A stretch of DNA of 64,000 bases from an uncultured Candidatus Saccharibacteria bacterium (GCA_964607655.1 CAZSKX010000003.1:4160-68159); one strand, 5' to 3'. Shown: positions 13,348 to 51,557, counted from the stretch's first letter. Numbers and translations are program-made. The notes: generated by a model not told the origin, from the sequence alone.

Positions 13348-13390
<43 letters not shown>

Positions 13391-13966: not shown

Positions 13967-14007
<41 letters not shown>

Positions 14008-14851
14008 TAGGATGTATTTAGCCTTACCGGTTAGTTCCGGCAGATTCACTCGAGCTATTCATGTCTCGAGCTACTCAAGAATACGAACAAGAGTCGTCAT
14101 GCATTTCGCATACGGGGCCATTACCCTCTAGGGCGCTGCTTCCCAACAGCTTCTGCTATACAGACGATTGGTAACTCTTTCCATACAAGTATGGTGTTCG
14201 CATCTTACAACCCCGCTATCCGAAGATAGCGGTTTGGGCTTTTCCCTTTTCGCTCGCCGCTACTTGGGGTATCACGAGAGTCGCTTTCAATGTGCACAAA
14301 CATAATGCGCACACTGAAAGCAACTCGTATTGTTCTCTTTTCCTCTCGGTACTGAGATGTTTCACTTCCCGAGGTTCGCTCCACACAGGCGTTACCCCGT
14401 GGGTTCCAGTTCAAGCTGGAGGGTTTCCCCATTCGGACATCTACGGATCACAGGCTACAAACCGCCTCCCCGAAGCTTTTCGCAGGTTAGTCACGTCCTT
14501 CATCGCCATCCTAAGCCTAGGCATCCACCGTGCACTCTTAATTGTCTCTCATGCGGAGACCTATATACCACAATCATTATTTGCACTTTGATTACCCCGT
14601 CGCTTTCGCAACGAGGCTTTCATTTACCTTTGCTACCCAGCCTTGCTGGCTCACCAACAAGACTGGGCTATTCGTATGTCAAATGTCACGTGTCCCCTCG
14701 AAACGAAAACCGCCCCCTCGGGGCGGTTCGCGTTTACAAACGCGCGGCATTTCTGCCTATCCCCGGATTAGGTTGGTTTGTAATTTCGTAGACACGTAGA
14801 ACCGAGTATATAGGAGGCGCTAAACCCTGTCAACTTAACCCCTCATCTAAC

Positions 14852-19785: not shown

Positions 19786-21723
19786 TTAGTTAAGACCTGT
19801 GTATGAGGTCTTGAAGGAGTCGAGACTTGAGTTGTAGACATTGTTCGGAGTTGCATCCGTTCCATCGGTCGTCCATGAGACTCCAGAGAGTGACACACGG
19901 AACTGACCTGCTGCGCCAGCAGCTGGGAGCTGAACCGTCGTCGTGATTTCGAAAGTCTCAGAATCACCCTCTTCGATCTGGTAGAGGCCAGCCGTGTTCT
20001 TAGTGGTGTCAGTGAGGTTCGCAATCGTGACTGAGGTTCCGCCAATAGTCGCCGTACCTGCGCGGTCAACCAAGACTGACGTCTTGCCGGTGGTTACACC
20101 AGAAAGCATTGCATCAGCGAGGCTCGACACGTATATCGTGTCACCAATCGCAGTTACCTTGAACTTGATGCGGAAGGTAGCCTGGTCATCGCTTGCTCCG
20201 TTGCCAGCAGCAATCGAGACGCTAGGAGAACCATCGAGCGTAAGACCAATGCCGTTTACACGGAACTCTTGGTACTTACCCGTTGCGGTGCCTGACTTCA
20301 CGCCTGAGGCGAGCTGGTCACCTTGTGCGTTCTCAATATCGATGTACTGGCGGTTGGTGCCGGTAACATCTGCCTTAAGAACACTGCCTGCTGCGAAGCC
20401 AGTGCCGATCTTGTTGATATCAGCAAGTACTTCGAAGTTGACGGTGTCTCCTGCCTCGAGGTCGAGGTCGAGACGATCAAACGTGACTGTCGCCGCGCTT
20501 GCGCTTGAGCTAACAGACTCCGTGTAGGTCTTGCCGTCAATCTTCAGCTTGACTGATCCCGTGACAGCAACAACGCCGCCAGAAGCATCAGTCGTGAAGG
20601 TTACTGGGAGCTCGTTGAGGAGCACGTCTTCTGTGCCACCGACCTTCATGCGGCCCTTCAAGAGGGTCACATTGTTGGTCTTCACCGTCTCGCTGACTAC
20701 AACAATACCCTGAGCTGGTGAGCTTGAGTCTGTTGAGATCTTGAGATCAGTGTTTGCAGCTGTACCGAAGTCAACGAAGTTGATACCTACCTCATTACCT
20801 ATCTCGAAGTCTGAGGTCGTGGTGTAAACACCTGAACCGTCAATGTAGCGGACGCTAGTTACCGCGACCGTCCAGGAGTCACCAGAGATGTCGCCTGAGT
20901 CAATCGTCGTTGCTGCATCCACTGCTACGTAAAGCGTAGCAGTCTCATCAGCCTCGATGGTAGTGTCGCCACTGAGCGAAATAGTCTTTGAGTAGACCGT
21001 GCCGCTCTTGCTGAACTCGTCTACATCTGCTGAGCCGATCTTCTTGCTTCCAAGGTAGACCGAGACGCTCTTGATGTAGCGGTTGAGGCGAGTAGAACCA
21101 CTGGTGTCTGCATAATCGAAGGCCACACGAACTGACTTGAGCGCGACGTCTCCGTCAGTCGAGGTCTCAATGTCTGCACCGAGCACCTGTACGTTCTTAC
21201 CACCTTCTGCAACCTCCTCGTTGCTCAAAGAGCCGAGAAGTGTGAAGCCCTCAATGGTACCGTCGGTACCCTTGAGCGTGCCAGTTGAATCCGGCGTGGT
21301 CGTGCTTACGCAAGGAAGACCCGTGTTCGGATCAAACTTGGTTGCGCAGGTTGAGCTGCCCGGTGTACCAGGAGCTGCAGTGAAAGCTGCGCGCGAGATA
21401 GGACCGAAGTAGCCAACTGCAGGAGCAATGTTGTTTGCTGACTGCCACTTAGCTACTGCTGACTGGGTAAGAGGACCGAAGTATCCCATCGATACGCCAA
21501 CTGGCATAACGAGGTATCCCTTCGCGACAAGTGCTGCCTGGAGGCAGATAACTTGTGCACCGGTTGAACCAATCGTCAAGTCAGACGTGATGGTGCAGGT
21601 AGCCCCTGCATCAGGTGTCTGCGCGTGTACTGCAGGAACAAACGAGAGCATCGCTGATGCCATCGCAAGTGACGCAGCCACAGCAGCAACCTTTGCGGAT
21701 GCCTTTGTAGTTACAATTTGCAT
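19786..21723 (-). CDS. secreted cell-surface (S-layer-like) protein with two peptidoglycan-binding-like domains and a Thr/Ser/Gly-rich beta-rich region
   Basis: Signal peptide 'MQIVTTKASAKVAAVAASLAMASAMLSFVPAVHA'. Two 'GSTGAQVICLQAALVAKGYLV...' PG_binding_1-like repeats are followed by about 450 aa of low-complexity T/S/G/V-rich sequence. Confidence 0.55.
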   Translation of the reverse strand: MQIVTTKASAKVAAVAASLAMASAMLSFVPAVHAQTPDAGATCTITSDLTIGSTGAQVICLQAALVAKGYLVMPVGVSMGYFGPLTQSAVAKWQSANNIAPAVGYFGPISRAAFTAAPGTPGSSTCATKFDPNTGLPCVSTTTPDSTGTLKGTDGTIEGFTLLGSLSNEEVAEGGKNVQVLGADIETSTDGDVALKSVRVAFDYADTSGSTRLNRYIKSVSVYLGSKKIGSADVDEFSKSGTVYSKTISLSGDTTIEADETATLYVAVDAATTIDSGDISGDSWTVAVTSVRYIDGSGVYTTTSDFEIGNEVGINFVDFGTAANTDLKISTDSSSPAQGIVVVSETVKTNNVTLLKGRMKVGGTEDVLLNELPVTFTTDASGGVVAVTGSVKLKIDGKTYTESVSSSASAATVTFDRLDLDLEAGDTVNFEVLADINKIGTGFAAGSVLKADVTGTNRQYIDIENAQGDQLASGVKSGTATGKYQEFRVNGIGLTLDGSPSVSIAAGNGASDDQATFRIKFKVTAIGDTIYVSSLADAMLSGVTTGKTSVLVDRAGTATIGGTSVTIANLTDTTKNTAGLYQIEEGDSETFEITTTVQLPAAGAAGQFRVSLSGVSWTTDGTDATPNNVYNSSLDSFKTSYTGLN

Positions 21724-36300: not shown

Positions 36301-36864
36301 TCAAAGCTCTGAGGCACTAATGCCTTGATTAATTCTTTGTATGTATGCAGCCCGCTCCTTGAGAACCTGCTGTAAAAACGATTCTTCGTATCCATTTGGG
36401 TTTACCGCATCTCCCGCATCAAGGCCAAGCAGGCCGAGCAGTCTCAAGACTGCCAGAAGCTCGATTGCTTCATGAAGTTCGACTGGTCGGTCACGCAATG
36501 CGGCAAGGAATCCCCTGACCACCTCGAACACACGTTCGTCACGCGCCTCGTCCGCAACGAGCCTCAAGAGCAGGCCGGTCACGCGCGCAACACGCTCACG
36601 CCCCGGGTGAGGTAGCACTTTGGCCCATTGTTCTTCCAGCACTGCCCCGACGACTCGCCATCCCTCCTTTCCTTGCACGAGCATCACCTCACTTTCAGAA
36701 AGCGTCGTCAGGCCATGAGCAAGTTTCGCCCCTGGCTTTCTGATCCCCTGGGCTCGTGCACGCACCAGTCCGACCGTCGGTGTAAGTAGCGTAACAAGTG
36801 AGTTGGCTTCGCCGAGCGAGGTACGCGCAAGAACAATCCCTCGCGTATCGTATTTATGCCGCAT
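36301..36864 (-). CDS. recO: DNA repair protein RecO (short form)
   Basis: N-terminal OB fold '[36 protein letters not shown]'. Confidence 0.55.
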
Positions 36865-39800
36865 CGCGTACGAGGTTAAACCGTTTCTCTCCCGTCGAGA
36901 GTGTTACCCCGTACTTCCCTCCTTCGACCACTTCCGTACGTACTTTGTCGGTAGGAGCCAGCTGCTCTTGCTTACGCGCGTCTGCAATCGCACGGGCGAA
37001 CTCTCGCTCATCGCCCTCTTGTACAAGCTCGGGGGTAAGCACCGTGTCGAGCGAAAGCGTCTCGCCCACGCTTACCTGCTTCACATTGATCTCCTCGGCG
37101 AGCACCGCAGCGAGCTCGAGCGGAAGTCCTCCATTGATGGTGACGCTCGCGAGCGGCTGGCGCACCTTGATCCCTGCCTTCTGGCGCAGCTGGAGCGCTT
37201 CTGAGGCAAGTGCCCGAACGCGAGCCATCTCGCCGACAAGATCGACCTTCGGTGCTGTTTTGAAAAGTTTCGTGAGCGTAAACGCCTCCCGCTTAGGCTC
37301 TGGCCACGCAGCTAAGTGCACACTGATCGGATCGCTCTCTTCACGCACCGAGCGGAAGATCTCTTCGGCGAGGAAAGGTGAGAAGGGGGCGAGTAGAAGC
37401 GCGCATGTCCGAAGCGTCGTGCGAAGGGTCTCGAGCGCCGCACTATCACCCTCTCGAGCTCGATCGCGCACTCGCCGCACATACCACTGCGACAAGTCTT
37501 CGGCGAGTGCTGCCACTCCTCGCGACGCTTCAAAGAGCTGATAGTGGTCGAGAGCCTCCGTCACTTCGTAGACGGCCTTCTCTAACCGCGCCTCCATCCA
37601 CTGGTCAAGGATCGTAGGGGTTGCTTCGACACGTGGAACCTCCTTAAAGAGGTCGTAAAACTTTGTACTGTTGTCGAGCCACGAGAGCACCTTCGCGGCC
37701 TCCTTCACCGTCTTCGGGTCAAAGTTCTTCGAGTCACCCGCCTGGCTCACGCTGTACATCCAGAAGCGGAGCGCATCGACACCGTACCGGTCGATCTCAT
37801 CCATCGGGTCAGTCACGTTCCCTTTCGACTTACTCATCTTCTGACCGTTCGCGTCGAGGAGATGGCCGAGACAAATCACGTTTTTAAATGGCGCTCCGCG
37901 TCCAGCGAGTACGCCGACGGCAAGGAGCGTGTAGAACCACCCACGCGTCTGGTCGATCGCTTCAGAGATAAAATCCGCAGGATACGCTACCTGCTTCATA
38001 TACTGCTCGAGCGTTTGCTCCCCGCGCTCTTTCGCCGCCTGAGCGAAGGGCATCGCGCCGGAGTCAAACCATACGTCCATCACCTCTTTAACTCGGCGGA
38101 GCTCAGTCCCCTTCTCGCTCACGAGCACCACGTCGTCGATATACGGCCGGTGCAGATCAAGCTCATAATTTTCATTGTGTGGCAGCGGAACGAAGTCAAA
38201 CTCGGCGACTTCTGCGAATTTAGCGCTACTAATGACCTTATTTAGGATCTCATTTGCCGCAATTGCGTCAGCTCCTTCAACGAGGACCGCGAACGACTCA
38301 AAGGCCACGCCGTGCGTAACGATAAGCACCTTTTCGTTCTTCGTCTTCTCCTCTAGTTCGTATACAAAAGATCCCAATCGGTTTTTGGCGTCTGCGTAAC
38401 TCTCTTCACCCCCCGGAACTAGATCGAGGTAGCCGTGAGTCTTCTTCCACGCCCAAAAAGCCTCGTGGGCACCCGGCTTGTTCTCTCCATCAAACTCTCC
38501 GAAATCAAACTCCCGTAGCCGGTCATCGTACGCGATCGCTTCTTTAGGGAAACCGAGACTCGTCGCAACCATCTCTGCCGTCTCTTTGGTGCGCAGGAGC
38601 GGCGAAGCGTAGATCTTTGTGATGCCCATCGTTTTAAGTTCTTCGATACTTGCCCTCACCTGCTCCTTCCCTTTTTCAGTCAAACCATTTGGCGTGCCGA
38701 TCTTCGAATCAAAAAACTTCTTTGCGTTCCCTTCGGCTTCGCCGTGACGCATTAGGAAGTACTGGTTGCCCGATTTCTTTGTGTGCTTCTTAAGTTCGTC
38801 GATTGAACCAGCAAGCGCCTGTTCGCTCCCGTCAGCACTCATCCAGACCGGAAGCGGTGTCCCCCAGTACCGCTCGCGACTGATCGCCCACTCCTTTGCG
38901 TTCGTGAGCCACTCGCCCATGCGCCCGTCGCGAATATGTTCTGGTTCCCAGTTGACCTTCTTGTTTTCTGCCACGAGCGTTCCTCGCAGGTCGTGAATGC
39001 GGATATACCACGAGTCCCGTGCGTAGTAGATGAGGCGAGTCTTGCAACGCCAGCAGAAGGGGTAGGTGTGCGTGTACGATTCTTTTTTAAATAAAATGCC
39101 CTGAGTCTGGAGATTCTTAAGGATCTCGACCGCCGTACTTTCTTCGATCACCGCACGCCCGGTAAGGAAGTCGGTTCCTTCGACATACTTCCCTTCAGGA
39201 TTTACCAAGTGAACCTTCGGTAGGCCGCGATCGCTGCCGAGGTCGAAGTCTTCTTGGCCATACATCGGCGCGATGTGCACGATGCCCGTACCCTCGTCAG
39301 TCGTGACGAAATCAGCATCATATACCGCATACGCGTGCTTAAACTTCGCGCGTTCTTCTTCGCGCGCGACCTCCTGGGCAAAGGCATAGACCGGCTTGTA
39401 GCGCTTCCCGATGAGCGCCTCCGCGAGCACATCCCCTGTGCGCTTCCACTCGGCTCCGAGCACCGCCTCAGCGCGTGCATCTGCGAGGATGACGTGCGTG
39501 CCGTCCTTCTCGTATTTACCGTATGAAATATTCTTTCCGATCGCGAGCGCGACGTTCCCGGGAAGCGTCCACGGCGTCGTGGTCCAGGCGAGCAAGAAGG
39601 TGCCCGGCTCACCCATGAGCTCAAACTTCACCATCACGGTGATGTCCTTCACCTCCTCGTAGCCCTGCGCGAGCTCGTGCGACGAGAGTGAGGTTCCACA
39701 GCGCGAACACCACGGCACCACGCGGTAGTCCTTATAGAGCCGGCCCTCCTTCGCGATATGCGCCATGATGCGCCACACCACCTCGATGTACGAGTTGTCG

Positions 39801-40249
39801 TAGGTGAAGTAGGCGTTCTTTGCGTCGACCCAGTAGCCGATGCGTCGCGTTACGTTCGCCCACAGGTCGATATAGGTCGCTGCCGTCTCACGACACTTTT
39901 TATTAAATGCGGCGATGCCGTACTTCTCGATATCTGGCTTACCGGAAAACCCAAGCTCCTTCTCAACCTGTAGCTCGACCGGGAGTCCGTGCGTATCCCA
40001 GCCCGCGCGACGGGGGACGTGATACCCACGCATCGTCTTATAGCGTGGAATCGCATCCTTGAAAGCGCGCGTCTCGAAGTGGCCCATGTGCGGCTTACCG
40101 TTTGCACCCGGCGGACCTTCGTAGAAAACAAACTCGCCCATGGGCGACGGCTTCTCGAGTGACTTCTCGAAGATCCTCTCACGCTCCCAAAACTCAAGCA
40201 CCGCCTCTTCGCGCTTGGCTGTTTCTGACTTCTCGGGCGCGTCGGCCAT
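36854..40249 (-). CDS. ileS: isoleucyl-tRNA synthetase carrying an inserted histidine-phosphatase (PGAM-family) domain
   Basis: HIGH region '[13 protein letters not shown]', editing-domain '[11 protein letters not shown]', '[14 protein letters not shown]', and 'KMSKSKGN'. Between '[13 protein letters not shown]' and 'HRPYIDD' lies a roughly 190-aa segment '[11 protein letters not shown]...[11 protein letters not shown]...LIVTHG', a His-phosphatase fold. Confidence 0.9.
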
Positions 40250-40677: not shown

Positions 40678-42363
40678 TCACATCCTGTCCGGTGTCGGGA
40701 TGCCGAGCAGCGTGAGGCCATTCGTCATCGTGTTGGCGAAGGCCTGTGCGACGCGCTGTTTGTACGCTTCTTCAGGGCTCCCGAGCACTTGTTCGTTTGC
40801 ATAAAAAGCGTTCCAGGTAGAAGCGAGCTCAGTGAGATACGTGAGCAAGTAGTTGGGCGCGAGCTCTCGCGCTGCGCGCGCGACCACCTCGGGGTAGTGC
40901 AGGAGCGCGCGCTCGATCGCGTATGGCTCTGCCGGCTCCTCGCCCCCCTTCTCGCCGTTGGTCGCGTAGGTGAGGATCTTCTTCGCGCGCACGAGTGCGT
41001 ACTGCAGGTACGGCCCTGAGTCGCCCTCAAGCGAGAGCGACTTCTCTGGGTCGAAAATAATGTCTGACCCCGGCGACTGCCGCAGCACCATATATTTAAT
41101 CGCGCCGATCGCGACCTGTTCAGCGATGAGCGGATCCTCATTCTTCTCACTCGCCTTCTTTACAATATCTTCGATAAACCCAGCGGCAGTGATCACATTC
41201 CCCTCGCGCGAGGACATCTTACCGGTGGTTAGTCGCAAGAAGCCGTGCGGCACGTGGATGGTCTTCGCCGCGAGGAGCGGCGCGACCTCCTTCATCGCGG
41301 CAAAGATAACCTTGAAATATTCACTCTGCTCTGCGGCCGTGAGGATAATGCTCTCGTCTGACGGCCATCGCTCCTCCTTTAAGAACGCGAGGCCGAGATC
41401 CTTCGCCTCGTAGAGCGGCGTCCCGCGGCTCGTGATAAATACCCGAGTGTGGAGCCCGACCTTCTCGCCCTTATACACCACCGCGCCCTCGCTCTGTTCG
41501 AAAATGCCTTTGGCAAGCCCGTCATGTACTACCTGGATACCGCGCGGCGCCGCGTCACTATCGAAGAAGAAGAAATCAAACTTGGTGTCGAGCAGCTTCC
41601 AGATCCGCGTAAACGCCTCCATCGAGACATCGCGCCCCTTACGCCAGAGCTCCATGAGCGCGTGATCCACACCCTCGTACAGCGCCGTATTAAGCGCGTC
41701 GATCTCGGCCTTCGCCGCCTCGTCCTCTTCATAGGCCTTATTGCCCTCCGCATACGCTGTGCCGATCTGCTCAGCACTCTCTGGCTCAGCGACTCCTTTC
41801 TTCTGCAATTCCCAGATCGCCTTCGCTACGTGCGGTCCAACGTCTCCCCCGTAGGTATCGCGCGCCATCGTCGCGCCCGCATTCTCTACCAGCCGGGAGA
41901 CCGCCTCGCCGATGATCGTGCTCATCAGGTGCCCGATGTGCATCGGCTTAAAGGCGTTTGGATTCGAGTATTCGATAATCACCCGCTTACCCTCCTTCGA
42001 CTTACCCTTACCCCAGTCGCTCCCCTGTGCTACCGCCTCGGCCACTGCAAATGCCACTTGCTCGCGCGCGAGGGTGATATTGATAAACCCCGGGCCGGCC
42101 ACTTCAACTTTCGACACTTTATCGCTCAGCTTCTTCTGAATCTTCTGTGCTAGCTCCTCGGCAAGCTCTCGAGGATTCTTTCCCAGCGCCTTAGCCGCGG
42201 CCATCGCCGCGTTGGTCGTATAGTCGCCAAACTCCGCGCTCGCCGGGCGCTCCACGGCAAAAGAAACTCCTTCTCCCACCTCGCCGAGAACGGCCTTGTG
42301 TATCAGCTCCTCCATTAAGCCGAGTGTACCAGATTCGCCTGAATTATTTGAACATCTGCGCAA
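40678..42363 (-). CDS. argS: arginyl-tRNA synthetase
   Basis: Class I 'PMHIGHLMSTIIGEAV' and a C-terminal DALR anticodon-binding region. Confidence 0.9.
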   Translation of the reverse strand: MRRCSNNSGESGTLGLMEELIHKAVLGEVGEGVSFAVERPASAEFGDYTTNAAMAAAKALGKNPRELAEELAQKIQKKLSDKVSKVEVAGPGFINITLAREQVAFAVAEAVAQGSDWGKGKSKEGKRVIIEYSNPNAFKPMHIGHLMSTIIGEAVSRLVENAGATMARDTYGGDVGPHVAKAIWELQKKGVAEPESAEQIGTAYAEGNKAYEEDEAAKAEIDALNTALYEGVDHALMELWRKGRDVSMEAFTRIWKLLDTKFDFFFFDSDAAPRGIQVVHDGLAKGIFEQSEGAVVYKGEKVGLHTRVFITSRGTPLYEAKDLGLAFLKEERWPSDESIILTAAEQSEYFKVIFAAMKEVAPLLAAKTIHVPHGFLRLTTGKMSSREGNVITAAGFIEDIVKKASEKNEDPLIAEQVAIGAIKYMVLRQSPGSDIIFDPEKSLSLEGDSGPYLQYALVRAKKILTYATNGEKGGEEPAEPYAIERALLHYPEVVARAARELAPNYLLTYLTELASTWNAFYANEQVLGSPEEAYKQRVAQAFANTMTNGLTLLGIPTPDRM

Positions 42364-42402: not shown

Positions 42403-42561
42403 CTAGCTCGCCTTAAGTCGCACCTGTTCGATCAGCTTCTGCTGGTCGGCGCTCGCCTTACGCGCCACGTCTAGGTACACCTTCTTTTTCTCCCGCGAAG
42501 AGGCCTCCCGGAAGAAACGCGAAAACTCTCCGGAAGTACGGACCGGGGTCTTTTTCTTCAT
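42403..42561 (-). CDS. small basic ORF (52 aa) immediately downstream of the zeta-like kinase gene (not in ORF track, <60 aa)
   Basis: Manual translation from the ATG (complement of 42559-42561) gives 'MKKKTPVRTSGEFSRFFREASSREKKKVYLDVARKASADQQKLIEQVRLKAS*'. It starts 17 nt after the zeta stop. Confidence 0.25.
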   Translation of the reverse strand: MKKKTPVRTSGEFSRFFREASSREKKKVYLDVARKASADQQKLIEQVRLKAS

Positions 42562-42578
42562 TAAGAAAGCAAGGAATT

Positions 42579-43307
42579 TCATGGGTTTTTGAGTGCTGCT
42601 TGCAATGTATCCTTACTGTAACGCTCGGGCACATACCCGTCAATCGAGCGTATGTTTGCTTCATAACGCAGGTCACTCCCATCAATATTCTTAACGATCA
42701 GATCGACTGTGATTCGATCCCCAAACTCCGATTTGAGCTTGTTAACATTTTCTCGTGCTTGAAAGTATTGTTCGACAAACGAATCTCTCGGTATCACCCG
42801 ACCCTCTCGCTGCTCACGTGCCTGAGCGAACTTCCAAGCCTGCAACGGGTCTTGATACACATAGAGGATCTGTACGAGCCGCTCCTTCTCTAGACTTCGC
42901 TCGATGTTCTCTCGAGCTCGCTCAAGGTTGGAGAGTGTCCCATCAAAGACGTAGCTCTGATGATTATGGAGGGCCAGGTCCTGCATCTTATCGGCAAGAA
43001 TAGACGTCGCACCCTGAAAGAGGCGTGAATTCGATCCGTTATATTCTTTGAACTCCTCTCGCAACTCATCTGCGTCTATCCGCAATACGGCATCCCTCCG
43101 CCCTGCGAGCCGCTCAATAAGCCGGAATGATGACTCGGTTTTACCCGCCCCTGGCGATCCCGCCATAAAGACCGAGACCGGCTGGGCGTCGGGCGGAAAG
43201 AGATTGATATCGGTGCGCCTCTTGGCAATAGCTACTTTATTTTTGTTCGCCTTTGCAAAAGCCAGCGCTTCTTCTTGGATCCGCCGGTCCTCTTCGGTCA
43301 TGCTCAC
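42579..43307 (-). CDS. zeta-toxin-like P-loop kinase (PF06414-like)
   Basis: Walker A 'FMAGSPGAGKTE' in a roughly 240-aa zeta/PezT-like architecture. Confidence 0.6.
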   Translation of the reverse strand: MSMTEEDRRIQEEALAFAKANKNKVAIAKRRTDINLFPPDAQPVSVFMAGSPGAGKTESSFRLIERLAGRRDAVLRIDADELREEFKEYNGSNSRLFQGATSILADKMQDLALHNHQSYVFDGTLSNLERARENIERSLEKERLVQILYVYQDPLQAWKFAQAREQREGRVIPRDSFVEQYFQARENVNKLKSEFGDRITVDLIVKNIDGSDLRYEANIRSIDGYVPERYSKDTLQAALKNP

Positions 43308-43384
43308 ATTCTACTCCAGGCCCCACCACTTTCCCGCCCCGTCTTCCACCTCCAGACTGTGCTCTTAGTCTTAAGGGTCATAAG

Positions 43385-43972
43385 TCATTTTGTCACTATA
43401 ACCGTCCCCACAAGCTCCACGTGTTTGTTCAGCAAATAATTTGCTACCCGCGGCAATTCATCATAGATATCAATCGATCCATTCGTAATGATCTGCTTTG
43501 GCTTTCTTTTGCCGTCAACTTTGTCTATTACGTAGCGGTACCTCACACCAATCGAGATCACCGAGATGATGCCTTGGGCGTCAACCGAGACAGAAACTCC
43601 TGATCTGCCTCGATGGGCTATGTACTGTCTCATGGCCTCTAAAATTGAAAACTCGGAAGAATGATCAATTTGCTCCCAAAACAAAAAAAGATTCCTTGAA
43701 TTTTGCTCAAGCTCCTTCTTGAAAGAAGGATTCCAAGAGACTTGATAAGGCGCTCTGTTAAGGCCTGATTGGATGTTGATAATCTGCAACATCATTTGGG
43801 AAGCCGCGTGCAATTCAAATATGCACGCATCCAAAAAATAATAGAATTCATTCTGTATTGAGGTTCTCTTCCGAGGATCGAATTCTTTGCTTCGCAACTT
43901 TTCAAAAAAGAAACGGGCTGCATCAATTTTAGTATTGAAAGCTTCAGACAAAGATTCCACTGTCTCGACCAT
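43385..43972 (-). CDS. hypothetical protein (195 aa), AT-rich, upstream partner of zeta-like kinase
   Basis: I recognise no motifs. Its codon composition resembles the foreign island. Confidence 0.4.
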   Translation of the reverse strand: MVETVESLSEAFNTKIDAARFFFEKLRSKEFDPRKRTSIQNEFYYFLDACIFELHAASQMMLQIINIQSGLNRAPYQVSWNPSFKKELEQNSRNLFLFWEQIDHSSEFSILEAMRQYIAHRGRSGVSVSVDAQGIISVISIGVRYRYVIDKVDGKRKPKQIITNGSIDIYDELPRVANYLLNKHVELVGTVIVTK

Positions 43973-44016
43973 ATATCTAGTCTCTAGACTTTTTAAGTCA
44001 CATCCAGAAAGTCCCT

Positions 44017-45180
44017 CTATCGGTTCCCCTTTGCTCGATTATGCGTTTTGCAAAGCATCTGGCAGTTTGCCGCATCTGTCGCCCCGCCCTTACTCCAGGC
44101 CGCCACGTGATCAGCGTCCATGTCGGCCAGACCCCAGATCTTTTCTTTATTGGCGTCGTGTCCCATTGCACACAGCGGGCAATTTGATTCTCCCTTCTCC
44201 TTGGTCGCTGCAGTCTGCGCCTCATAGACTGAGCGCTTGGTCGCCTCGTCAAACATGCGCACGTCCAGCAGCTTGGTATCCACTTCACCACCCAATACGT
44301 ACTCAAAAATCCCTTTTCGACTCTTGACGTGCGCATCTCCATAGAGGCGTTGAACCGCTGCGGAAACTTTCGCAGGATCGTATGATTGCTTGTGATACGT
44401 CTTATATAGTCGATTCCACTCGAGTCCCTTCATTTCACTCTCAACGTCGATAAACGTCGTCGATACCCAATTTATCACCGTATCGAAATGTTTCTTCAGG
44501 CCAGTAATATCAGCATCTTGTCGGTGCTGGCTCATATAGCTATCAATCGCTCCATCAGAAACCCAGTCGAGGGCTTGCTCGAGATAAGCCTGGCGCTTCA
44601 CCTCACCTGAAATATAGGCACTCCACTTCTGGACGTTCGCATTCTGGCTGTTACTGAACTCCTCGCGCGCACGTGTCACAAACGGACCAGAGTACACGGC
44701 ATTCAATATCTCTTGCTCCGTTAGAGGGACTCCGGCAATATTGATCGTCCTGAACCAGTCTTTGATTTCAGGCTCTTCGCCCTCGCATATATATATGAGC
44801 AATTTCGTATTCAAGATCATCTCTCGTTGTACATCGGCCATGCCAGTGTAGTATTGCTCGTGCCCATTTTGATCCTTCACAGCAAACTTTCCAGTTACAA
44901 ACCGGCCAATACTGGTAATGCGCTGCTGTCCGTCGAGAACCTCGAGCTTCTTCTCGCCGGTCCGATTGAAATACATCACACCAATTGGATAGCCTTTTAC
45001 AATAGAATCGACCACTCCCACGTCACGCTTGCCATCGGCGTAGATGTAGTTGCGCTGGTACTCAGGCTGGATCGTGAGCGTGCCCGATAGACCAAAGAGC
45101 CCCTTGCCTTCTAGCTCATTGTACTCAAAGCCATCGACGACTTCTCGAATTGTAATGTCTGTTTTCAGTGCAGTATTCAT
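44017..45180 (-). CDS. DUF262 (ParB-like, DGQQR motif) + C-terminal HNH nuclease; GmrSD-like/type IV-like restriction endonuclease, short form
   Basis: 'LEVLDGQQRITSI' DUF262 signature and a C-terminal HNH 'CPLCAMGHD...DHVAAWSKGG...NCQMLCKTHNRAKGN'. Confidence 0.7.
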   Translation of the reverse strand: MNTALKTDITIREVVDGFEYNELEGKGLFGLSGTLTIQPEYQRNYIYADGKRDVGVVDSIVKGYPIGVMYFNRTGEKKLEVLDGQQRITSIGRFVTGKFAVKDQNGHEQYYTGMADVQREMILNTKLLIYICEGEEPEIKDWFRTINIAGVPLTEQEILNAVYSGPFVTRAREEFSNSQNANVQKWSAYISGEVKRQAYLEQALDWVSDGAIDSYMSQHRQDADITGLKKHFDTVINWVSTTFIDVESEMKGLEWNRLYKTYHKQSYDPAKVSAAVQRLYGDAHVKSRKGIFEYVLGGEVDTKLLDVRMFDEATKRSVYEAQTAATKEKGESNCPLCAMGHDANKEKIWGLADMDADHVAAWSKGGATDAANCQMLCKTHNRAKGNR

Positions 45181-46286
45181 GTCGTAGTTCTTCTATGTTT
45201 AACAAACAATCTCTTAAATGTCTCCTTGCCGTTTACATAGGTGCTTCTGCCGTAAACGCCCTCAGCATCTTGACTTACGCCTCGGTTGGCGCCAACGATC
45301 TCAAATTGGCTTGGTGAATACTTGTCGAGGAAATTTATCGGTACGCCCATAACGCCCTGGTAATCCTTGGGTATCGCTGCAATATAAGGTACGTCGATGG
45401 CATCATAGTTGTCATATCTGTCGTAAGCTGACTTTCCTCTCATTTTTTTATTAAATTTCAAATTCTCCTCGAGACTCATCAGGTCTAATGGCAAGTGTCG
45501 ACGCCCATGATCGAGATTCGTATACCACCTGACGCCCATTACTCGCTGATAATACTTTCCTTCCCGAACCTCGCCGGTGAATTTAGACATGTCTACAGTT
45601 GTTTTTGGCACTTCAAACTCCCTATCCCCACTCGAAATACTTGGTCCAAGCCACATCAAATTCGATTTAATGAGCGGAAAAATCTCTGTATATGTAATAG
45701 CGTTTATATGCCCGATAATTAAATATTGTTTATCAAAATTTATCAGTTGTGCCACATAGGGACGAAACAGGCTAAATGGAGGGTTCGTGACAACAATGTC
45801 GGATTCTTTAAGCAATTCGATGCATTCCCGACTTCGGAAGTCGCCGTCGCCCTCTAGCGGCGACCATTCATTGTTTTTATTTGCTTTCAATTGCTGCGCG
45901 ATATCCTGCAAAGTGAAAGACCCATCACCATCCACATCGCCGACTTCGTTGATAATGAACTTATTGGCGGTAATTTTTGGTCGGCCTTTGACGGGTTCGA
46001 GCGTCACGTCATCTCCAAATAGTCCGAGCTGTGTATTCGCAACAGGCGACGGTTTGTAGCTCGTTGTAATAAGCCGCTTTAGCCCAAGGCGTTTGAAATT
46101 AAGTACGAAGTAGCGAAAGAAATTGCTCTCGAAAGGGTCGTCGCAGTTGCAGTAGATAACCTTATCCTTAAAGGTGCTGGAATCGAACTCGAGATATGCC
46201 TCGATCTCTTTTTGAATATCGCTGTACTGCGTATAGAACTCGTCATTCTTTACCTTTTTGGCATTGGTGAGGTTACTGTTGGCCAT
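45177..46286 (-). CDS. N6-adenine DNA methyltransferase, EcoRI-methylase-like family
   Basis: 'IVVTNPPFSL' motif IV (NPPF) and an N-terminal 'DEFYTQYSDI' region. A 4-nt overlap with the downstream nuclease gene suggests an operon. Confidence 0.6.
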   Translation of the reverse strand: MANSNLTNAKKVKNDEFYTQYSDIQKEIEAYLEFDSSTFKDKVIYCNCDDPFESNFFRYFVLNFKRLGLKRLITTSYKPSPVANTQLGLFGDDVTLEPVKGRPKITANKFIINEVGDVDGDGSFTLQDIAQQLKANKNNEWSPLEGDGDFRSRECIELLKESDIVVTNPPFSLFRPYVAQLINFDKQYLIIGHINAITYTEIFPLIKSNLMWLGPSISSGDREFEVPKTTVDMSKFTGEVREGKYYQRVMGVRWYTNLDHGRRHLPLDLMSLEENLKFNKKMRGKSAYDRYDNYDAIDVPYIAAIPKDYQGVMGVPINFLDKYSPSQFEIVGANRGVSQDAEGVYGRSTYVNGKETFKRLFVKHRRTTT

Positions 46287-46516
46287 ACCTAATAGCCAAA
46301 TGATCCCACAATTTCTTCATTTTTGGAATGCGGCTGAGCTCGGTAGTCTCGGCAAGCCCGAATCCCCAGCTCATTGATTTTTCATCCGAAGGGGTATACC
46401 ACCTTTGTATTTCTATTGAAGGGCACCTCCGTGGGTTTCGTCCCCGGGCGGTGCTTTTCTTTTATACTCGAGCTTGGCCGTCAGAACGGCGATAGTGGAG
46501 CCGATCGCGAACACAT

Positions 46517-47161
46517 CTATACGCTGAAGATGTTAATTCTTCGGGCTGCCCGCAAGGTGTAGTCATTCTTTTTCAAAAAATCTTCTATCCCCGCAATCGC
46601 CTTCTTGGGTGCCATGGTTGTCATAAAGTCGTCGAGGGATTCGAAGCGAAATATCGTCTCGTCCGGTATCTCAGCAATTTCTGCATAGCCTTGGTGGGTT
46701 TTCAGAGCATTGTAGGCAGCTCGCTTCTCTTGTCTCTCGTCACCGTCGCATGCGTCAAAGGCAATCTCCGCATCAAAAAAGGTTCCTTCTTCGGCTGGTT
46801 CGAGAAAAATGATATGGCCACCTTTTTTCGTGACGCGAATCGCTTCGTCAATCGCCCTCGGCATTTCTTCAATCGGCACATGGTGCAAGGAAAGAGTAAA
46901 TAAAACCGCATCGAACTGCTCGTCCGGAAAGCCAAGCCTTTCTGCTTTACCAAGTACGTAAGTGATGTTTTGAGCTGCATTGTGCGTCCTGGCCCAATCA
47001 AGGAGCGCAGTATCTGGCTCCATTGCGGTCAGCCAGGCACACTTCTTCGCTATCTCAACCGAACGTGAGCCATTCCCACACCCGATTTCGAGAATAGACT
47101 TCCCGAACAACGGCATCACCGTTTCGATACTGCTCAAATAGTCGTCCTTCAACCTTTTCAT
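46517..47161 (-). CDS. class I SAM-dependent methyltransferase (small-molecule type)
   Basis: Motif I 'ILEIGCGNGSRS' and motif II/III spacing. Confidence 0.7.
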   Translation of the reverse strand: MKRLKDDYLSSIETVMPLFGKSILEIGCGNGSRSVEIAKKCAWLTAMEPDTALLDWARTHNAAQNITYVLGKAERLGFPDEQFDAVLFTLSLHHVPIEEMPRAIDEAIRVTKKGGHIIFLEPAEEGTFFDAEIAFDACDGDERQEKRAAYNALKTHQGYAEIAEIPDETIFRFESLDDFMTTMAPKKAIAGIEDFLKKNDYTLRAARRINIFSV

Positions 47162-47285
47162 ACGCGAACTATAGCAAACGGGCCGATAAGGGTCCTTAGA
47201 TTATTTGCCGTTGCAACAAACGCCTAACAGGAGTAGCCTGTTCGGAGATCATCAGTTCACTCACGCTCAGCAAAGAGGAGGTTCT

Positions 47286-47738
47286 ATGGAATCTGTCCGG
47301 CTACAAGAATTGTCAGTTGCAGGTTTTGGGGGCTCGCCCTATCAAACGGGTCGCGTGACCATTCACGACGACATCATCACGTACTTGATCTACGACAGCG
47401 ACGGGGGCTCTCATCTCGACGAGATGCTCACCTTACGAGACGTCGAGAACATCAGCGCCCGGATGGGCCGGTTAGGTACCTGCTATCTTATCTTCGGGGG
47501 AGTCTCGGCGATTGCATCGCTCGTGTTGTGGAATCCGCTCCTCGCCTTCGGCGCGTGGAGTTTTTTCACGATCGCCCAAGGGGTTATGGTGGACCTCGTG
47601 ATCGAGACCAAGCGCGGCACTAGGCTCGTGTGGGCAACACGAGAGTGGCGGGATACGGAACACTTCAGCCAATACGTACAACGGGCCTTGGTCGAATGGC
47701 GCACGCGCCACTGTTCGGCGGGACACCCCGTCCTCTGA
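47286..47738 (+). CDS. hypothetical membrane protein
   Basis: Two TM helices and a following hairpin terminator. The ORF-track start at 47205 may be over-called. Confidence 0.3.
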   Translation: MESVRLQELSVAGFGGSPYQTGRVTIHDDIITYLIYDSDGGSHLDEMLTLRDVENISARMGRLGTCYLIFGGVSAIASLVLWNPLLAFGAWSFFTIAQGVMVDLVIETKRGTRLVWATREWRDTEHFSQYVQRALVEWRTRHCSAGHPVL

Positions 47739-47743
47739 CTGGA

Positions 47744-47775
47744 GGCCGTTTGCGATACTTGTATCGCAAACGGCC
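47744..47775. terminator. terminator hairpin
   Basis: 'ggccgtttgcgatac ttgt atcgcaaacggcc'. Confidence 0.6.
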
Positions 47776-47841
47776 TTTCTTTTTATACAAACGACTCGGG
47801 AATAAAAGGCCTGAGAAAAATGCACATGCTACGATGCCTCC

Positions 47842-48312
47842 ATGGCACTAATCTACGAAACCCATAACTTCACTATTCAGTCTACCGATCGGCCCTTCGT
47901 CGACCGAACCGAAGGCGGACACCTCCGGATATACCCCAAAGTCCCTGTGCGAGATCGGACTAAACTTACTCCTGCCCTGGCAACCGAATACATGAAGTTG
48001 TCGATGGTTGTGGGAGAGGCACTCGTCACCGTCATGAGAGCCCAAGGCGTCGAGATAGGCATCGTTAATTATCAGGACATGGGAAATTGGGGTGTTTTTA
48101 AGCCAGAAGGACCCACACTCCACATGCAAATCTTCGGTCGAGCCGTTAACGCCACCATCCAAAAGTATGGCGAAGCGGTTTTGCTACCTCAGCGAGAGAC
48201 AGGGTTTTATGATAATTTCCAACCACTCACCGATGAAGATCGCGATCTGTTAAAAGCAGAAATCGACAACCTCCTCAATACAGAGAAATATTCAACTCGC
48301 TGGTCTGAGTAA
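47842..48312 (+). CDS. hypothetical protein, possibly HIT-like superfamily
   Basis: 'GGHLRIYPK' and 'TLHMQIFGR' (HxHxQ-like). Weak. Confidence 0.3.
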   Translation: MALIYETHNFTIQSTDRPFVDRTEGGHLRIYPKVPVRDRTKLTPALATEYMKLSMVVGEALVTVMRAQGVEIGIVNYQDMGNWGVFKPEGPTLHMQIFGRAVNATIQKYGEAVLLPQRETGFYDNFQPLTDEDRDLLKAEIDNLLNTEKYSTRWSE

Positions 48313-48382
48313 CTTCCCTGTCTAAAACGACTCGGGGGTGGGTGCGTGAGGGCAATTTTTACTACTTCTGACTTTGCAGCTG

Positions 48383-49537
48383 TTATCTCAACTTTATTTG
48401 GTCCTTTGGTATCTCTACTAGAGAGTCGACGATTTTCAGAATGTCTGCATCAGTCACTATGGTGCTGTCCTCTTCCCAGGTTTGATTGATGTTTATGGGA
48501 TTAAAGCCAACGAGAGTACCGCCAACCCGTACGAACCAAAAATCTGATCCTAGAGCAGCTTGGGGATGTCTCACTCCGTACACACGATCTCCTTTGGAGG
48601 TAGTGCCCACCGAGAAACATACCCCCGCTAAGAATGGCTTGTCCTGTGTAAAACTGAAACAGTCGTCAGGGCAGCGTGCACCATCGCCAGCGATAAGGTC
48701 TTCCCGACCGGTCTGACACAACTCTAACGCCTCATGCAGGCCGTCATATGGGCTCCTACCTACGATCTCCGCATAGAGGACTAGGTCATCGGGTGATGTG
48801 TAGTATTCGTTATAAAATTTCCCATCGTAGGTCATGCCCTCGGGTATCCACGTCGGCTGTAACACCGTGTAGCCCACCTGCGCTGCGATGCTCCTCGTCT
48901 CGCTTTTATAAACCATGTTGCTCATAAGCACTTGGATTATCGGCCCCGCTATAACGTAGATAAGCACCAGCGCTGTAAACAGTGTACCTCTAGCGACTTT
49001 GTGTCCAGCCATTACCCTCATGCCAGAACGGTACGTGCTCGAGATATTTAGCAGCATATCCACAATCCAGAACGTTATGACGAAGATGGCCGCACTTAGA
49101 ACAAGGGAGATAACAATATCCCCCTTAACCACCAGTTCCCCGATCCCGGCAACGGTAACCGCGATAGTGAGTGCTACAACAGCAAGGAGCGTCCCATCGA
49201 ATGGCTCCCTCTTCAAACGATAAAGCCATACCGCAGCAATCACAGCAAGGAAAAACTGGCCGGCCACAAGCAGGTTACCTAACACCAGCGCGAGCGCGAG
49301 TCCGGAGAAACCTGAAGAATCTTTCAAAAGCGTCTGAATCAGGAGAAACCCTAATCCGTATCGAGCGCCGTAGTATACGAGCGTCGCGAGGAGCGGCACG
49401 AAGATGAGCGAGTAGATAGTATTGCGGGCAGCTTGCTCGGGCGGCATAGGCTGAGCTTCTGGTGGCATATCGAAATGATAGCACTCGTTTTTAATGGAAA
49501 TTAAAAAGAGGCCCGCTGCAGGATGCAGCGGGCCCAA
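48383..49537 (-). CDS. hypothetical polytopic membrane protein with extracellular C-terminal domain
   Basis: About 6 TM helices, then a soluble domain. I recognise no family. Confidence 0.4.
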   Translation of the reverse strand: MGPLHPAAGLFLISIKNECYHFDMPPEAQPMPPEQAARNTIYSLIFVPLLATLVYYGARYGLGFLLIQTLLKDSSGFSGLALALVLGNLLVAGQFFLAVIAAVWLYRLKREPFDGTLLAVVALTIAVTVAGIGELVVKGDIVISLVLSAAIFVITFWIVDMLLNISSTYRSGMRVMAGHKVARGTLFTALVLIYVIAGPIIQVLMSNMVYKSETRSIAAQVGYTVLQPTWIPEGMTYDGKFYNEYYTSPDDLVLYAEIVGRSPYDGLHEALELCQTGREDLIAGDGARCPDDCFSFTQDKPFLAGVCFSVGTTSKGDRVYGVRHPQAALGSDFWFVRVGGTLVGFNPININQTWEEDSTIVTDADILKIVDSLVEIPKDQIKLR

Positions 49538-49561
49538 GGTGCTACGTGTACGACAAATGAG

Positions 49562-50821
49562 CTAGTTGAACGATTCGGGGATCGGATGTGCGACCGCGAG
49601 CTCGCGTACCTGTGCCTTGGCAGCCTCCGGTGCCAGGCGCTTCTTGAGTACGTCGAGCATGATGCTCGCGACCTCGCAACTGTCGGCAGCCGAGAAGCCG
49701 CGGGTCGTGATAGCAGGCGTCCCGAAGCGGATCCCTGATGGATCCATCGGCTTCCTCGGGTCGTCAGCGATCACGTTCTTATTGACCGTGATCCCCGCCT
49801 CGTCGAGAAGCTTCTCCGCCACAGCACCCGTGATGCCAAAGGAGCCGAACACGTCCGCCAGGATGAGGTGGTTGCTCGTCCCGCCGGTGATCAAGCGCAC
49901 TCCGCCCTCTTTGAACACCTCGGCCATCGCCCTGGCGTTCTCGAGAACCTGCTTCGCATACACCTTGAACGACGGCTGCAGAGCCTCGTTAAAGGCGATC
50001 GCCTTGGCTGCGATCTGGTGCATGTGAGGCCCGCCCTGGAGCCCCGGGAAGACCGACTTGTCGATCGCCTTCGCGATCGCCTCGCTCTCCCGCGTGAGGA
50101 TCATCCCGCCGCGCGGACCCCGCAGGGTCTTGTGCGTCGTGGTGGTCATCACGTCGAAGCCGTAGTCGAAGGGGTTCGCTACGGCCCCGCCGGCGATGAG
50201 GCCAGCGATGTGTGCGATGTCCATCACCGCGACAGCGCCGACTTCGCGCGCGATCTCGACAATCTTCGCGTAGTCGAGCTCGCGCGGATACGCCGAGAAG
50301 CCCGCGAGGATCATCTTCGGCTGCACGCGCTTGGCCGTCTCGAGCATCGCCTCGTAGTCGATCTCACCCGTCTCGACATCCTTCATCCCGTAACGGACGA
50401 AGTTGTAGATCTTGGCGAGCTGCGTCACCGGGTGACCATGCGTGAGATGCCCACCATGGCTGAGCTCCATCCCGAGGATGGTGTCCCCGGGCTTCAGGAG
50501 CGCGTTGTACATCGCGGCGTTCGCGTTCGCGCCACCCAAGGGCTGCACGTTCGCGAAGGCAGCGCCGAAGAGCTTCTTCGCGCGCTCGATCGCGATCGTC
50601 TCGATCTGGTCCATGAACTCCTGGCCGCCGTAGTAGCGCGCTCCAGGATACCCTTCGGAGTACTTGTTGGTCGCTGAGGAGGCCATCGCCTCCATCACTG
50701 CCGCCGAGACGTGGTTCTCGCTCGGGATAAGCTCCAGGCCCTTGGCCTGGCGCTGGTCTTCGCCAATGAGCGCATCGTAGATGCGCTCGTCCTCTTGTTT
50801 GATATGCCTGTAGTCACGCAT
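49562..50821 (-). CDS. glyA: serine hydroxymethyltransferase (start trimmed to 'MRDYRHIKQEDERIYDAL')
   Basis: 'LELIPSENHVSAAVMEAMAS...NKYSEGYPGARYYGG' and the PLP-lysine region 'TTTTHKTLRGPRGG'. The ORF-track start at 51001 would overlap tmk. Confidence 0.9.
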   Translation of the reverse strand: MRDYRHIKQEDERIYDALIGEDQRQAKGLELIPSENHVSAAVMEAMASSATNKYSEGYPGARYYGGQEFMDQIETIAIERAKKLFGAAFANVQPLGGANANAAMYNALLKPGDTILGMELSHGGHLTHGHPVTQLAKIYNFVRYGMKDVETGEIDYEAMLETAKRVQPKMILAGFSAYPRELDYAKIVEIAREVGAVAVMDIAHIAGLIAGGAVANPFDYGFDVMTTTTHKTLRGPRGGMILTRESEAIAKAIDKSVFPGLQGGPHMHQIAAKAIAFNEALQPSFKVYAKQVLENARAMAEVFKEGGVRLITGGTSNHLILADVFGSFGITGAVAEKLLDEAGITVNKNVIADDPRKPMDPSGIRFGTPAITTRGFSAADSCEVASIMLDVLKKRLAPEAAKAQVRELAVAHPIPESFN

Positions 50822-50852
50822 GAGCGCAGTGTACCCCGGTAGACGGCTTCGC

Positions 50853-51557
50853 TCAACGCGCGGGCTCTCTCGAGAGCAGAGACTCCACAGTCGTACGAAC
50901 CTCTTCGTGGATATCCTCGATTGAACGCATTTCTTCCCCTTGCACACAGTCGATAATGCTCCAGTTCGGCTGTCTCTCTGCGAGCCAGTTTGCTGTCGCA
51001 TGACTTTGTTCGAGATAGGTTCGATCTTCCTCTACCGTATCCTTCACTCCCGCACCGAGGAGCTGGTTCTTTGCCGCACGCTTCTTTTGCAAAAGTTCTA
51101 GACTTGTTTCGACCGGCACGCGCAGATAAATGATGTGATCAGGCTTGGGGACATGGAGCACTTCGTGCTCCATGCGATCAAGCCACTTGAGGAACGTTTC
51201 TCTTTCTTTTTCGTCTGCTATCTTCCCCCCTTGGTGGATCTGATTGGAGCTAGCGAATCGATCTGCAATCACCACCTTTCCCTCTTCTAGAGCTTTCTGT
51301 ATGTCTGGAGACGCTTCGAGCCTATCAAGCGCATAGAGTGGCGAAGAAATCTTTGGGCTTGTATGCAAAAAATCCCCCTCTTTACCTGCCAAACACTCTG
51401 CCAAAAGAGCCCCAAAAAAACTCTCGCTGTACCTTGGGAAAGAGATCGTCATCGACTCGACCCCGTCTGCGCTAAGCATCTCCGCAAGCAACCGTGACTG
51501 GGTCGCCTTGCCGGACCCGTCGTTACCGTCGAGCACGATAAATACCCCTTTGCGCAT
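50853..51557 (-). CDS. tmk: thymidylate kinase
   Basis: 'GVFIVLDGNDGSGKATQ' P-loop and the LID region. Confidence 0.85.
   Translation of the reverse strand: MRKGVFIVLDGNDGSGKATQSRLLAEMLSADGVESMTISFPRYSESFFGALLAECLAGKEGDFLHTSPKISSPLYALDRLEASPDIQKALEEGKVVIADRFASSNQIHQGGKIADEKERETFLKWLDRMEHEVLHVPKPDHIIYLRVPVETSLELLQKKRAAKNQLLGAGVKDTVEEDRTYLEQSHATANWLAERQPNWSIIDCVQGEEMRSIEDIHEEVRTTVESLLSREPAR

Follow-up and report, generated by a model that had tools for sequence, protein, structure and literature searches.

DUF262 has been described as a nucleoside triphosphatase (NTPase) or sensor domain of GmrSD, BrxU, SspE, Menshen, Dazbog and PD-T4-2 (PMC10952713, PMC12065111, PMC12707154). HEPN genes are often linked to restriction-modification (R-M) systems in general, although no conserved neighbourhood or association has been reported for the HEPN family Cthe_2314 (PMC3710099). 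Both kinds of domain are found in the locus described here, which lies in a stretch of 64,000 nucleotides from an uncultured Candidatus Saccharibacteria bacterium (GCA_964607655.1 CAZSKX010000003.1:4160-68159). The whole stretch is called the window, and positions are counted from its first letter. The locus is the gap between glyA, for serine hydroxymethyltransferase, and argS, for arginyl-tRNA synthetase (ArgRS). It includes a two-gene cassette, in which an EcoRI-family N6-adenine DNA methyltransferase (MTase) is followed by a DUF262-HNH nuclease.

A first-pass annotation, made from the sequence alone, had placed an AT-rich, defence-like island at 43.4-47.2 kb and interpreted it as a single module acquired by horizontal transfer. 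Our analysis showed that the gap between glyA and argS is a variable hotspot, which probably holds an accessory mosaic of about 7.1 kb (42,403-49,535) derived from several independent acquisitions.

Synteny in related genomes

The loci of relatives were found by an ArgRS search, and four were obtained, L007, L008, L009 and L010. The gene order of the window is nusG-rplK-(thyA-dcd-folA)-tmk-glyA-island-argS-ileS. The same backbone is present in L007 (ArgRS 45% identical), as nusG-rplK-tmk-argS. L009 (ArgRS 64%) presents the order thyA-glyA-argS with 121 bp separating glyA and argS, that is, an empty site. In L010 (ArgRS 46%) the two genes are separated by a DUF2914 protein and a 221-aa (amino acid) protein, both unrelated to the genes of the window. 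In L008 (ArgRS 78%), the closest relative, argS is directly preceded by just two genes, for a methylase and a nuclease of the same families as those of the window, to which they are 47% and 69% identical. The empty site of L009 and the differing fills of L010 and L008 therefore define the gap as a variable hotspot, and the conserved synteny expected of a housekeeping gene set is not seen. The membrane protein and the zeta kinase of the window were also considered as ancestral genes of the gap and rejected, since neither resembles the gap genes of L010.

The nucleases of other lineages of the Candidate Phyla Radiation (CPR) are 85-88% identical to that of the window, against 69% for the one at the same site in L008. 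Because the window nuclease is nearer to these other lineages than to its counterpart in L008, whose MTase is also only 47% identical, the divergence of the two cassettes argues for an independent acquisition or a replacement. The nearest homologues of several genes of the window are named Paceibacterota, Patescibacteria, Minisyncoccota or Saccharimonadales, and the proteins of the region are full length in relation to their homologues. Together, the empty site in L009, the non-uniform composition and the mobile cassette support the horizontal acquisition proposed in the first-pass annotation.

Gene content of the gap

The gap and its two flanking genes contain the following features (open reading frame, ORF; S-adenosylmethionine, SAM).

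40678-42363, minus strand: argS, arginyl-tRNA synthetase (Pfam tRNA-synt_1d 9e-37, Arg_tRNA_synt_N, DALR_1); left flank, outside the island
42403-42582, minus strand: 59-aa ORF, putative antitoxin, overlapping the zeta stop codon by 4 bp (ATGA)
42579-43301, minus strand: Zeta-toxin-family P-loop kinase, 240 aa (Pfam Zeta_toxin 1.7e-37); ATG at 43301, ORF extendable to a GTG at 43307
43385-43972, minus strand: stand-alone HEPN-domain protein of the Cthe_2314 family, 195 aa (Pfam HEPN_Cthe2314 1.4e-7)
44017-45180, minus strand: restriction-type nuclease, 387 aa, with DUF262/GmrSD_N (ParB/Srx-like, DGQQR) and zinc HNH domains (Pfam GmrSD_N 7.3e-21, HNH 1.9e-6)
45177-46286, minus strand: EcoRI-family N6-adenine DNA methyltransferase (Pfam EcoRI_methylase 1.6e-124)
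46517-47161, minus strand: class I SAM-dependent methyltransferase (Pfam Methyltransf_11 1.2e-22)
47205-47738, plus strand: orf177, 177 aa, no family match, followed by a terminator-like hairpin at 47741-47778
47842-48312, plus strand: HIT-like protein, 156 aa, marginal (Pfam HIT 1.9e-4, 22.4 bits against a cut-off of 21.5)
48383-49471, minus strand: predicted membrane protein, with hydrophobic segments in the translation; the ORF extends to 49537
49509-49535, minus strand: terminator-like hairpin directly after the glyA stop, with a 12-bp stem, 9 GC pairs and a T-rich tail
49562-50800, minus strand: glyA, serine hydroxymethyltransferase (Pfam SHMT 1.7e-147); right flank, outside the island

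The variable region is bounded on the right by the glyA hairpin and on the left by the end of the 59-aa ORF, at 42403. A scan for promoters and terminators gave counts equal to those of shuffled sequences, and just two strong hairpins are worth noting, the one after glyA and the one after orf177, on the plus strand, with a 17-bp stem. A longer version of the membrane-protein ORF would start with a TTG at 49537; because this position falls inside the glyA terminator hairpin, a later start near 49471 is more likely. No match was found for orf177 in Pfam, NCBIfam, PADLOC or PHROG, and the membrane protein has no family match either.

Beyond glyA are found tmk, thyA, dcd and folA (tmk, Thymidylat_synt, DCD and DHFR_1 matches), followed by rplK and nusG. 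The core thymidylate cluster that had been placed next to the island is thus real. The longest ORF for glyA, 49562-51001 on the minus strand, overlaps tmk (50853-51557, minus strand) by about 150 bp. The true start of glyA is probably downstream of that of the longest ORF, because the SHMT domain begins at residue 67. The GC (guanine plus cytosine) content at third codon positions of glyA is 0.82, the highest in the window (z +2.8).

Composition of the region

The mean GC of the 64-kb window is 0.545, and falls to 0.467 in 43385-47161 and to 0.461 in 43385-46600. Segments of 400 bp within 43385-47161 range from 0.383 to 0.537, while the flanking genes argS and glyA have 0.588 and 0.634, respectively. 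The region is the GC minimum of the window at every scale tested. The lowest-GC stretch of 3216 bp in all 64 kb is 43369-46584, and the lowest of 7172 bp is 42404-49575, which coincides exactly with the gap between glyA and argS. Elsewhere in the window GC is low only at 10.8-14.6 kb, in the 23S rRNA gene. The fall in GC had been given as going from about 60% in the flanks to 35-47% in the island; the value for the flanks is about right, and that for the island is slightly too deep, as its minimum is 38% and the nuclease gene inside it has about 50%. The low GC of the interval 43.4-47.2 kb is also real, but the variable region to which it belongs extends over 42,403-49,535.

Compared with the 51 other ORFs, the GC z-scores of the island genes are -4.2 for the HEPN gene, -3.5 for the EcoRI-type MTase, -2.0 for the SAM methyltransferase, -1.9 for the HIT-like gene, -1.6 for the nuclease, -1.3 for the membrane protein, -1.2 for zeta and +0.7 for orf177. 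Composition is thus not uniform; uniform composition and conserved synteny, the two results that would have refuted the first-pass annotation, were both looked for and not obtained. Synonymous codon usage is only mildly atypical: the length-adjusted z is 1.4-1.5 for the HEPN and EcoRI-type MTase genes and reaches 1.2 in the HIT-like gene, with all others near 0; therefore, much of the drop in GC lies in codon positions 1 and 2. In addition, the most atypical codon usage of the window belongs to a 645-aa ORF outside the region, at 19786-21723 on the minus strand (length-adjusted z 2.9), which has an unusually high second-position GC of 0.505.

The weakly atypical synonymous codon usage could suggest that the low GC is native to these genes, or that the region is an assembly chimera, and that it is not accessory in either case. 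The empty site of L009 already largely refutes this explanation. In L008, which was assembled independently, a cassette of the same family is likewise joined to argS, and the GC of the cassette lies below that of its host in most of the loci examined. We therefore give the explanation almost no credence.

Modules of the mosaic

The modules of the region occur elsewhere without each other, and the region appears to be a mosaic that combines cargo with three or more independent modules, instead of the single acquired module first proposed. In the preferred reading, the EcoRI-family MTase of the cassette would mark adenines in the host DNA, and the translationally coupled DUF262-HNH protein would cut incoming DNA without the methyl mark. 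The HEPN protein would represent a toxin-type module beside the cassette, and the zeta kinase with its 59-aa partner would be a second one; both occur in other loci without the cassette. Domains, motifs, gene coupling, the empty site of L009 and the mobility of the cassette were observed, while enzyme activity, a protective effect of methylation, the roles as toxin or antitoxin and the sequence of acquisitions are inferred.

The 195-aa protein, which had been described as hypothetical, is not without a family. It matches HEPN_Cthe2314 with 32.1 bits, above the Pfam gathering cut-off of 27.1, and the Rx4H motif (R115-QYIA-H120) can be read from its translation, so that it is predicted to be a HEPN RNase-type protein. 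Its gene has the lowest GC of the island, 0.417. Its family is rare: among 1.84 billion, just 20 cluster representatives reach E<=1e-3. Around the gene of its one close homologue lie housekeeping genes and a serine recombinase, and neither zeta nor an R-M system is near; no MNT antitoxin gene was found near the HEPN gene at the locus.

The zeta-toxin-like kinase, earlier placed at the edge of the island, has the expected domain and a Walker A motif (GSPGAGKT), but its gene falls within the variable region, together with a 59-aa partner of its own. Homologues of the kinase number 2806 across phyla, and the closest, 58-77% identical, come from Minisyncoccota, Patescibacteria and Mucilaginibacter. 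A small ORF follows zeta in the window and in four of four other contexts examined. The motif SxFSRFFREASSxEKKKV of the 59-aa ORF is kept directly downstream of the zeta homologues in L020/L021, L022 and L023 (tblastn 1e-8 to 1e-17), where partners of 57-59 aa are encoded in unrelated phyla (L020 5720-5893, L022 4717-4893, L023 ~4771-4893). The 59-aa ORF has no Pfam or PHROG family match and may represent an undescribed family of partners or antitoxins of zeta kinases. We read the two genes as a putative toxin-first pair, of the toxin-antitoxin or the abortive-infection kind. A pairing of HEPN with zeta was considered and rejected, since the homologues of neither keep the other as neighbour.

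The SAM methyltransferase has the domain that had been assigned to it, but nothing ties it to defence; its NCBIfam matches are all far under the cut-offs. It was tried as a third gene of the cassette and rejected, as the SAM methyltransferase upstream of the cassette in an E. faecium plasmid is just 25% identical to it, over a generic fold, and the one in L004 is unrelated. Together with orf177, the HIT-like protein and the membrane protein, it is classed as putative cargo without detectable defence link. A comparison with the MADS locus, mad1-mad8, gave only generic-domain matches, mad2 with 3.2e-18 (SAM-methyltransferase fold) and mad8 with 7.7e-4 (zeta P-loop), and no other mad components.

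The nine genes adjoin one another, six of them share a strand and are separated by short gaps, and the low GC appears as a block, which could indicate that the whole of 42.4-49.5 kb arrived in one transfer as one co-functional multi-gene defence system. The general link of HEPN genes with R-M systems (PMC3710099) points in the same direction. However, every module is found elsewhere without the others, the R-M pair is by itself next to argS in L008, the GC per gene spans 0.417-0.571, and the HEPN family in question is the one without a reported conserved neighbourhood (PMC3710099). A single transfer is, then, quite unlikely.

Some observations weigh against a mosaic of acquired defence modules and are considered together here. 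The contig of L008 begins at the MTase gene, so conservation of the cargo in the closest relative is not readable. No integrase, tRNA or flanking repeat was found in 42-50 kb by family searches and by repeat and tRNA scans, in which repeats were at chance level; the absence of an integrase had been remarked before, and no mobility gene, tRNA or flanking repeat shows how the pieces arrived. The codon usage of the nuclease, zeta, SAM methyltransferase and membrane protein genes is like that of the host, so that they were acquired long ago or are native in part. Finally, palindromes of 4 and 6 bp show no clear depletion across the 64 kb (worst z -1.96, for CTAG), and AATT, GAATTC and CAATTG have the expected frequency; without palindrome avoidance, neither restriction pressure nor a target site can be read from the sequence.

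The methylase-nuclease cassette

The island itself is ordinary in kind. It provides a clean case of a defence or addiction hotspot in a small genome of the CPR type, and the site is empty in one relative and differently filled in two more; such a case is useful but expected. The evolutionary pattern of the cassette is the only part of it that could lead to something new.

Both genes of the cassette are on the same strand, MTase first, and the stop of the MTase overlaps the start of the nuclease by 4 bp (ATGA), as read directly from the sequence. The domains that the first-pass annotation had given to these proteins, DUF262 with DGQQR plus HNH and an EcoRI-type N6-adenine methylase, were confirmed, and the PADLOC scan that it had suggested recovered both as Type II models. 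The MTase matches MTase_II over its full length (1.5e-105), and the nuclease matches REase_II over aa 8-386 (1.1e-84), practically its whole length. An adjacent and co-oriented pair of DNA methyltransferase and endonuclease genes, as in Type II R-M systems, is therefore present.

The MTase has an NPPF motif at aa 168-171, of the amino-methyltransferase (D/N)PP(Y/F) type. In the nuclease, the DGQQR motif is D83-GQQR87, at aa 83-87, and the HNH motif is D357-H358...N372...H380-N381 with Cys334/337/373/377. Residues D83-GQQR87, C334, C337, C373, C377, H358, H380 and N381, and likewise the HNH motif in full, do not vary among 26 homologues, and by these residues the active site of the nuclease appears intact. 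Sequence searches of solved structures gave no match for the nuclease or the MTase, including no M.EcoRI-family structure, and a profile search with the nuclease gave BrxU (7p9k) as the best match, with a non-significant E of 0.14. An AlphaFold2 model of the nuclease, from the alignment of the 26 sequences (75-88% identity), was unusable, with a predicted local distance difference test score of 47 and a predicted template modelling score of 0.28.

The nuclease has more than 8000 homologues; the 120 matches listed are 75-100% identical, and nearly all have exactly 387 aa. In an exact-sequence look-up, neither the window nuclease nor its 88% identical relative P0002 was on record. The order of MTase then nuclease, overlapping or closely abutting, was found in Pseudohongiella chromosomes, several CPR contigs, a 9-kb Moraxella plasmid, E. 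faecium megaplasmids and the Flavobacterium phage laban6-1. Among the IMG/VR loci with enough upstream sequence, 59 of 62 have an EcoRI-family MTase upstream of the nuclease, on the same strand and at no more than 1.4 kb, and the pairing is also present in every other context examined. The neighbours of the cassette vary by locus and are often defence genes (AbiE, SIR2-HerA, AAA_13, DUF2130 plus helicase, DUF3800). The MTase and the nuclease are thus a self-contained mobile cassette of two genes, distributed across phyla, plasmids and phages.

This distribution also bears on whether the DUF262-HNH protein could be a GmrSD-like Type IV modification-dependent enzyme, functionally unrelated to the neighbouring MTase. 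Its architecture, with an N-terminal DUF262 and a His-Me nuclease, would agree with a Type IV enzyme, as would BrxU as the best, if non-significant, match among solved structures. However, the two genes overlap by 4 bp and occur together in 59 of the 62 viral loci and in the other contexts cited above, and the C-terminal domain is a zinc HNH (PF01844) and not DUF1524. A Type IV enzyme with an unrelated neighbour is therefore very improbable.

Full-text literature searches returned no paper in which a DUF262-HNH nuclease is paired with an EcoRI-family methylase. The cassette family is catalogued, in the PADLOC Type II models, though uncharacterised in the literature searched. With its thousands of homologues, a tool-given Type II label and no published characterisation found, it carries a value wider than that of the island.

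Nuclease constancy and methylase shuffling

The conservation of the two proteins was compared in 61 loci with a full nuclease and a full MTase, which make 1830 pairs. The nuclease is the more conserved in 95.8% of the pairs, with mean identities of 65% for the nuclease and 51% for the MTase. The usual Type II pattern is the reverse. In pairs whose nucleases are 95-100% identical, the median identity of the MTases is 71% and the minimum is 62%.

The difference is clear in L058 and L059, two prophage ends in which the MTase gene is followed by those of Bro-N, the nuclease and the integrase, in that order. At the DNA level the two are 68.4% identical in the MTase, 98.8% in Bro-N, 100% in the nuclease and 99.6% in the integrase. 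The divergence of the two MTases is limited to the segments equivalent to window aa ~203-248 and ~335 to the end, with 0-28% identity there, and the N-terminal half, including NPPF, is 80-100% identical. Among 35 anchorable MTases, the variable segments are of discrete types (9 and 20), which recombine and recur with different nuclease clusters. In L036, two tandem EcoRI-family MTases (1636-2775 and 2889-4004) precede one nuclease. The arrangement with Bro-N between MTase and nuclease and a tyrosine integrase after the nuclease is shared by a group of prophage ends, L058, L059, L063, L064 and L070, in which only the MTase differs and the elements are otherwise about 99% identical. The nucleases of L058, L059, L063 and L064 are identical, and the segments of their MTases differ.

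It is plausible, although less likely than not, that specificity would reside only in the two swappable segments of the MTase, the DUF262-HNH protein being a sequence-blind nuclease with an NTP (nucleoside triphosphate) switch and not a classical Type II enzyme. The nuclease would then act in complex with the MTase, by a Mod/Res logic, or would sense methylation, as SspE does phosphorothioate. The greater constancy of the nuclease, the pairing of identical nucleases with reshuffled MTases, the confinement of MTase divergence to two segments of discrete recombining types, and the tandem MTases that serve a single nuclease in L036 are in favour of this, as are the invariance of the DGQQR NTP-binding motif and the role of DUF262 as NTPase sensor in GmrSD, BrxU and SspE (PMC10952713). 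Against it, PADLOC files the nuclease as a Type II restriction enzyme, and the MTase matched no structure of the M.EcoRI family. Stand-alone recognition by the nuclease of the same defined sequence as the MTase, with Mg2+ only as in classical Type II enzymes, seems disfavoured, because identical nucleases pair with differing MTase segments and the NTP-binding motif is conserved.

Then, we tentatively suggest that the cassette might represent an undescribed class of R-M system, in which an MTase with interchangeable target segments would direct or license a specificity-less, ParB-like NTPase-HNH effector. It would follow the logic of Type III or Type I systems, or that of an SspE-like sensor of the self mark, with other components. 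Such a model would explain both the identical nucleases with reshuffled MTases and the tandem MTases per nuclease. If true, a specificity held by the MTase only would add a new architecture to the types of R-M systems, and the cassette would be a natural system reprogrammable by the exchange of short MTase segments.

Other features of the window

The isoleucyl-tRNA synthetase (IleRS) of the window, 1131 aa (36854-40249, minus strand), has a His_Phos_1 domain, alpha-ribazole-phosphatase-like, inserted at aa ~498-661 between the synthetase halves. The same insertion is present in L008 (4449-7829; PF00300 3.3e-33) and absent from the distant relative L007 (IleRS 963 aa).

The 16S rRNA gene (218-1683, minus strand) lies about 9 kb from the 23S-5S genes (10742-10855 and 10954-14551, minus strand), with protein-coding genes between them. 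The 23S rRNA match has 3598 nt against 2925 nt in the Rfam model, which corresponds to an insertion of about 670 nt. Unlinked 16S and 23S genes and 23S insertions are typical of CPR bacteria. With the names of the nearest homologues, they make it reasonable to assume a host of CPR type with a small genome. In addition, an Rfam tRNA match of 126 nt and 53.7 bits (10401-10526, minus strand), uncalled by ARAGORN, overlaps the end of the ORF 9571-10587 and may be an intron-containing tRNA.

Comparison with known systems

The HEPN protein has the Rx4H signature and adjoins an R-M cassette, as do the HEPN RNases associated with abortive infection and R-M systems, of PrrC-like logic (PMC3710099). Unlike these, it has no MNT or ABC partner, and its adjacency to the cassette was seen in no other locus examined. 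The zeta gene resembles those of the epsilon/zeta (PezAT) systems in its kinase domain, its Walker A and its overlap with a small partner gene. The partner, however, is downstream and not upstream, and matches no described family; the gene upstream of zeta is that of the HEPN protein and not epsilon/PezA, and HEPN is not conserved beside the zeta homologues.

As for the cassette, the MTase is a full-length member of the M.EcoRI family (PF13651), with the NPPF motif, and forms part of a mobile two-gene unit, as in the EcoRI R-M system. It is 41% identical, end to end, to the MTase beside the 'type-2 restriction enzyme EcoRI' of the E. coli plasmid pU90-3. On the other hand, the nuclease has no similarity to R.EcoRI, being DUF262 plus HNH instead, and the gene order is MTase then nuclease with a 4-bp overlap, whereas in EcoRI the nuclease comes first.

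With the Type IV enzymes GmrSD and BrxU, the nuclease shares an N-terminal DUF262 with DGQQR and a C-terminal His-Me-finger nuclease in one polypeptide (PMC10952713, PMC12707154). It differs in its cysteine-rich zinc HNH C-terminus (PF01844), with no DUF1524 match, in its size, 387 aa against 587 in BrxU, and in its translational coupling to an MTase, so that it would presumably spare modified DNA. The combination of a host DNA modification that marks self with a DUF262-nuclease effector recalls SspABCD-SspE (PMC10952713). In the cassette, however, the mark would be N6-methyladenine placed by a single MTase, and not phosphorothioate placed by four proteins, and the nuclease domain is HNH and not DUF1524.

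The Type III Mod/Res systems are similar in logic only, with the MTase gene first and variable MTase segments beside a conserved NTPase-nuclease partner; the cassette has no superfamily 2 helicase or PD-(D/E)XK nuclease, and its MTase is of the EcoRI family and not a Type III Mod. The swapped segments of the MTase, for their part, resemble the shuffling of target-recognition domains in Type I and Type III systems.

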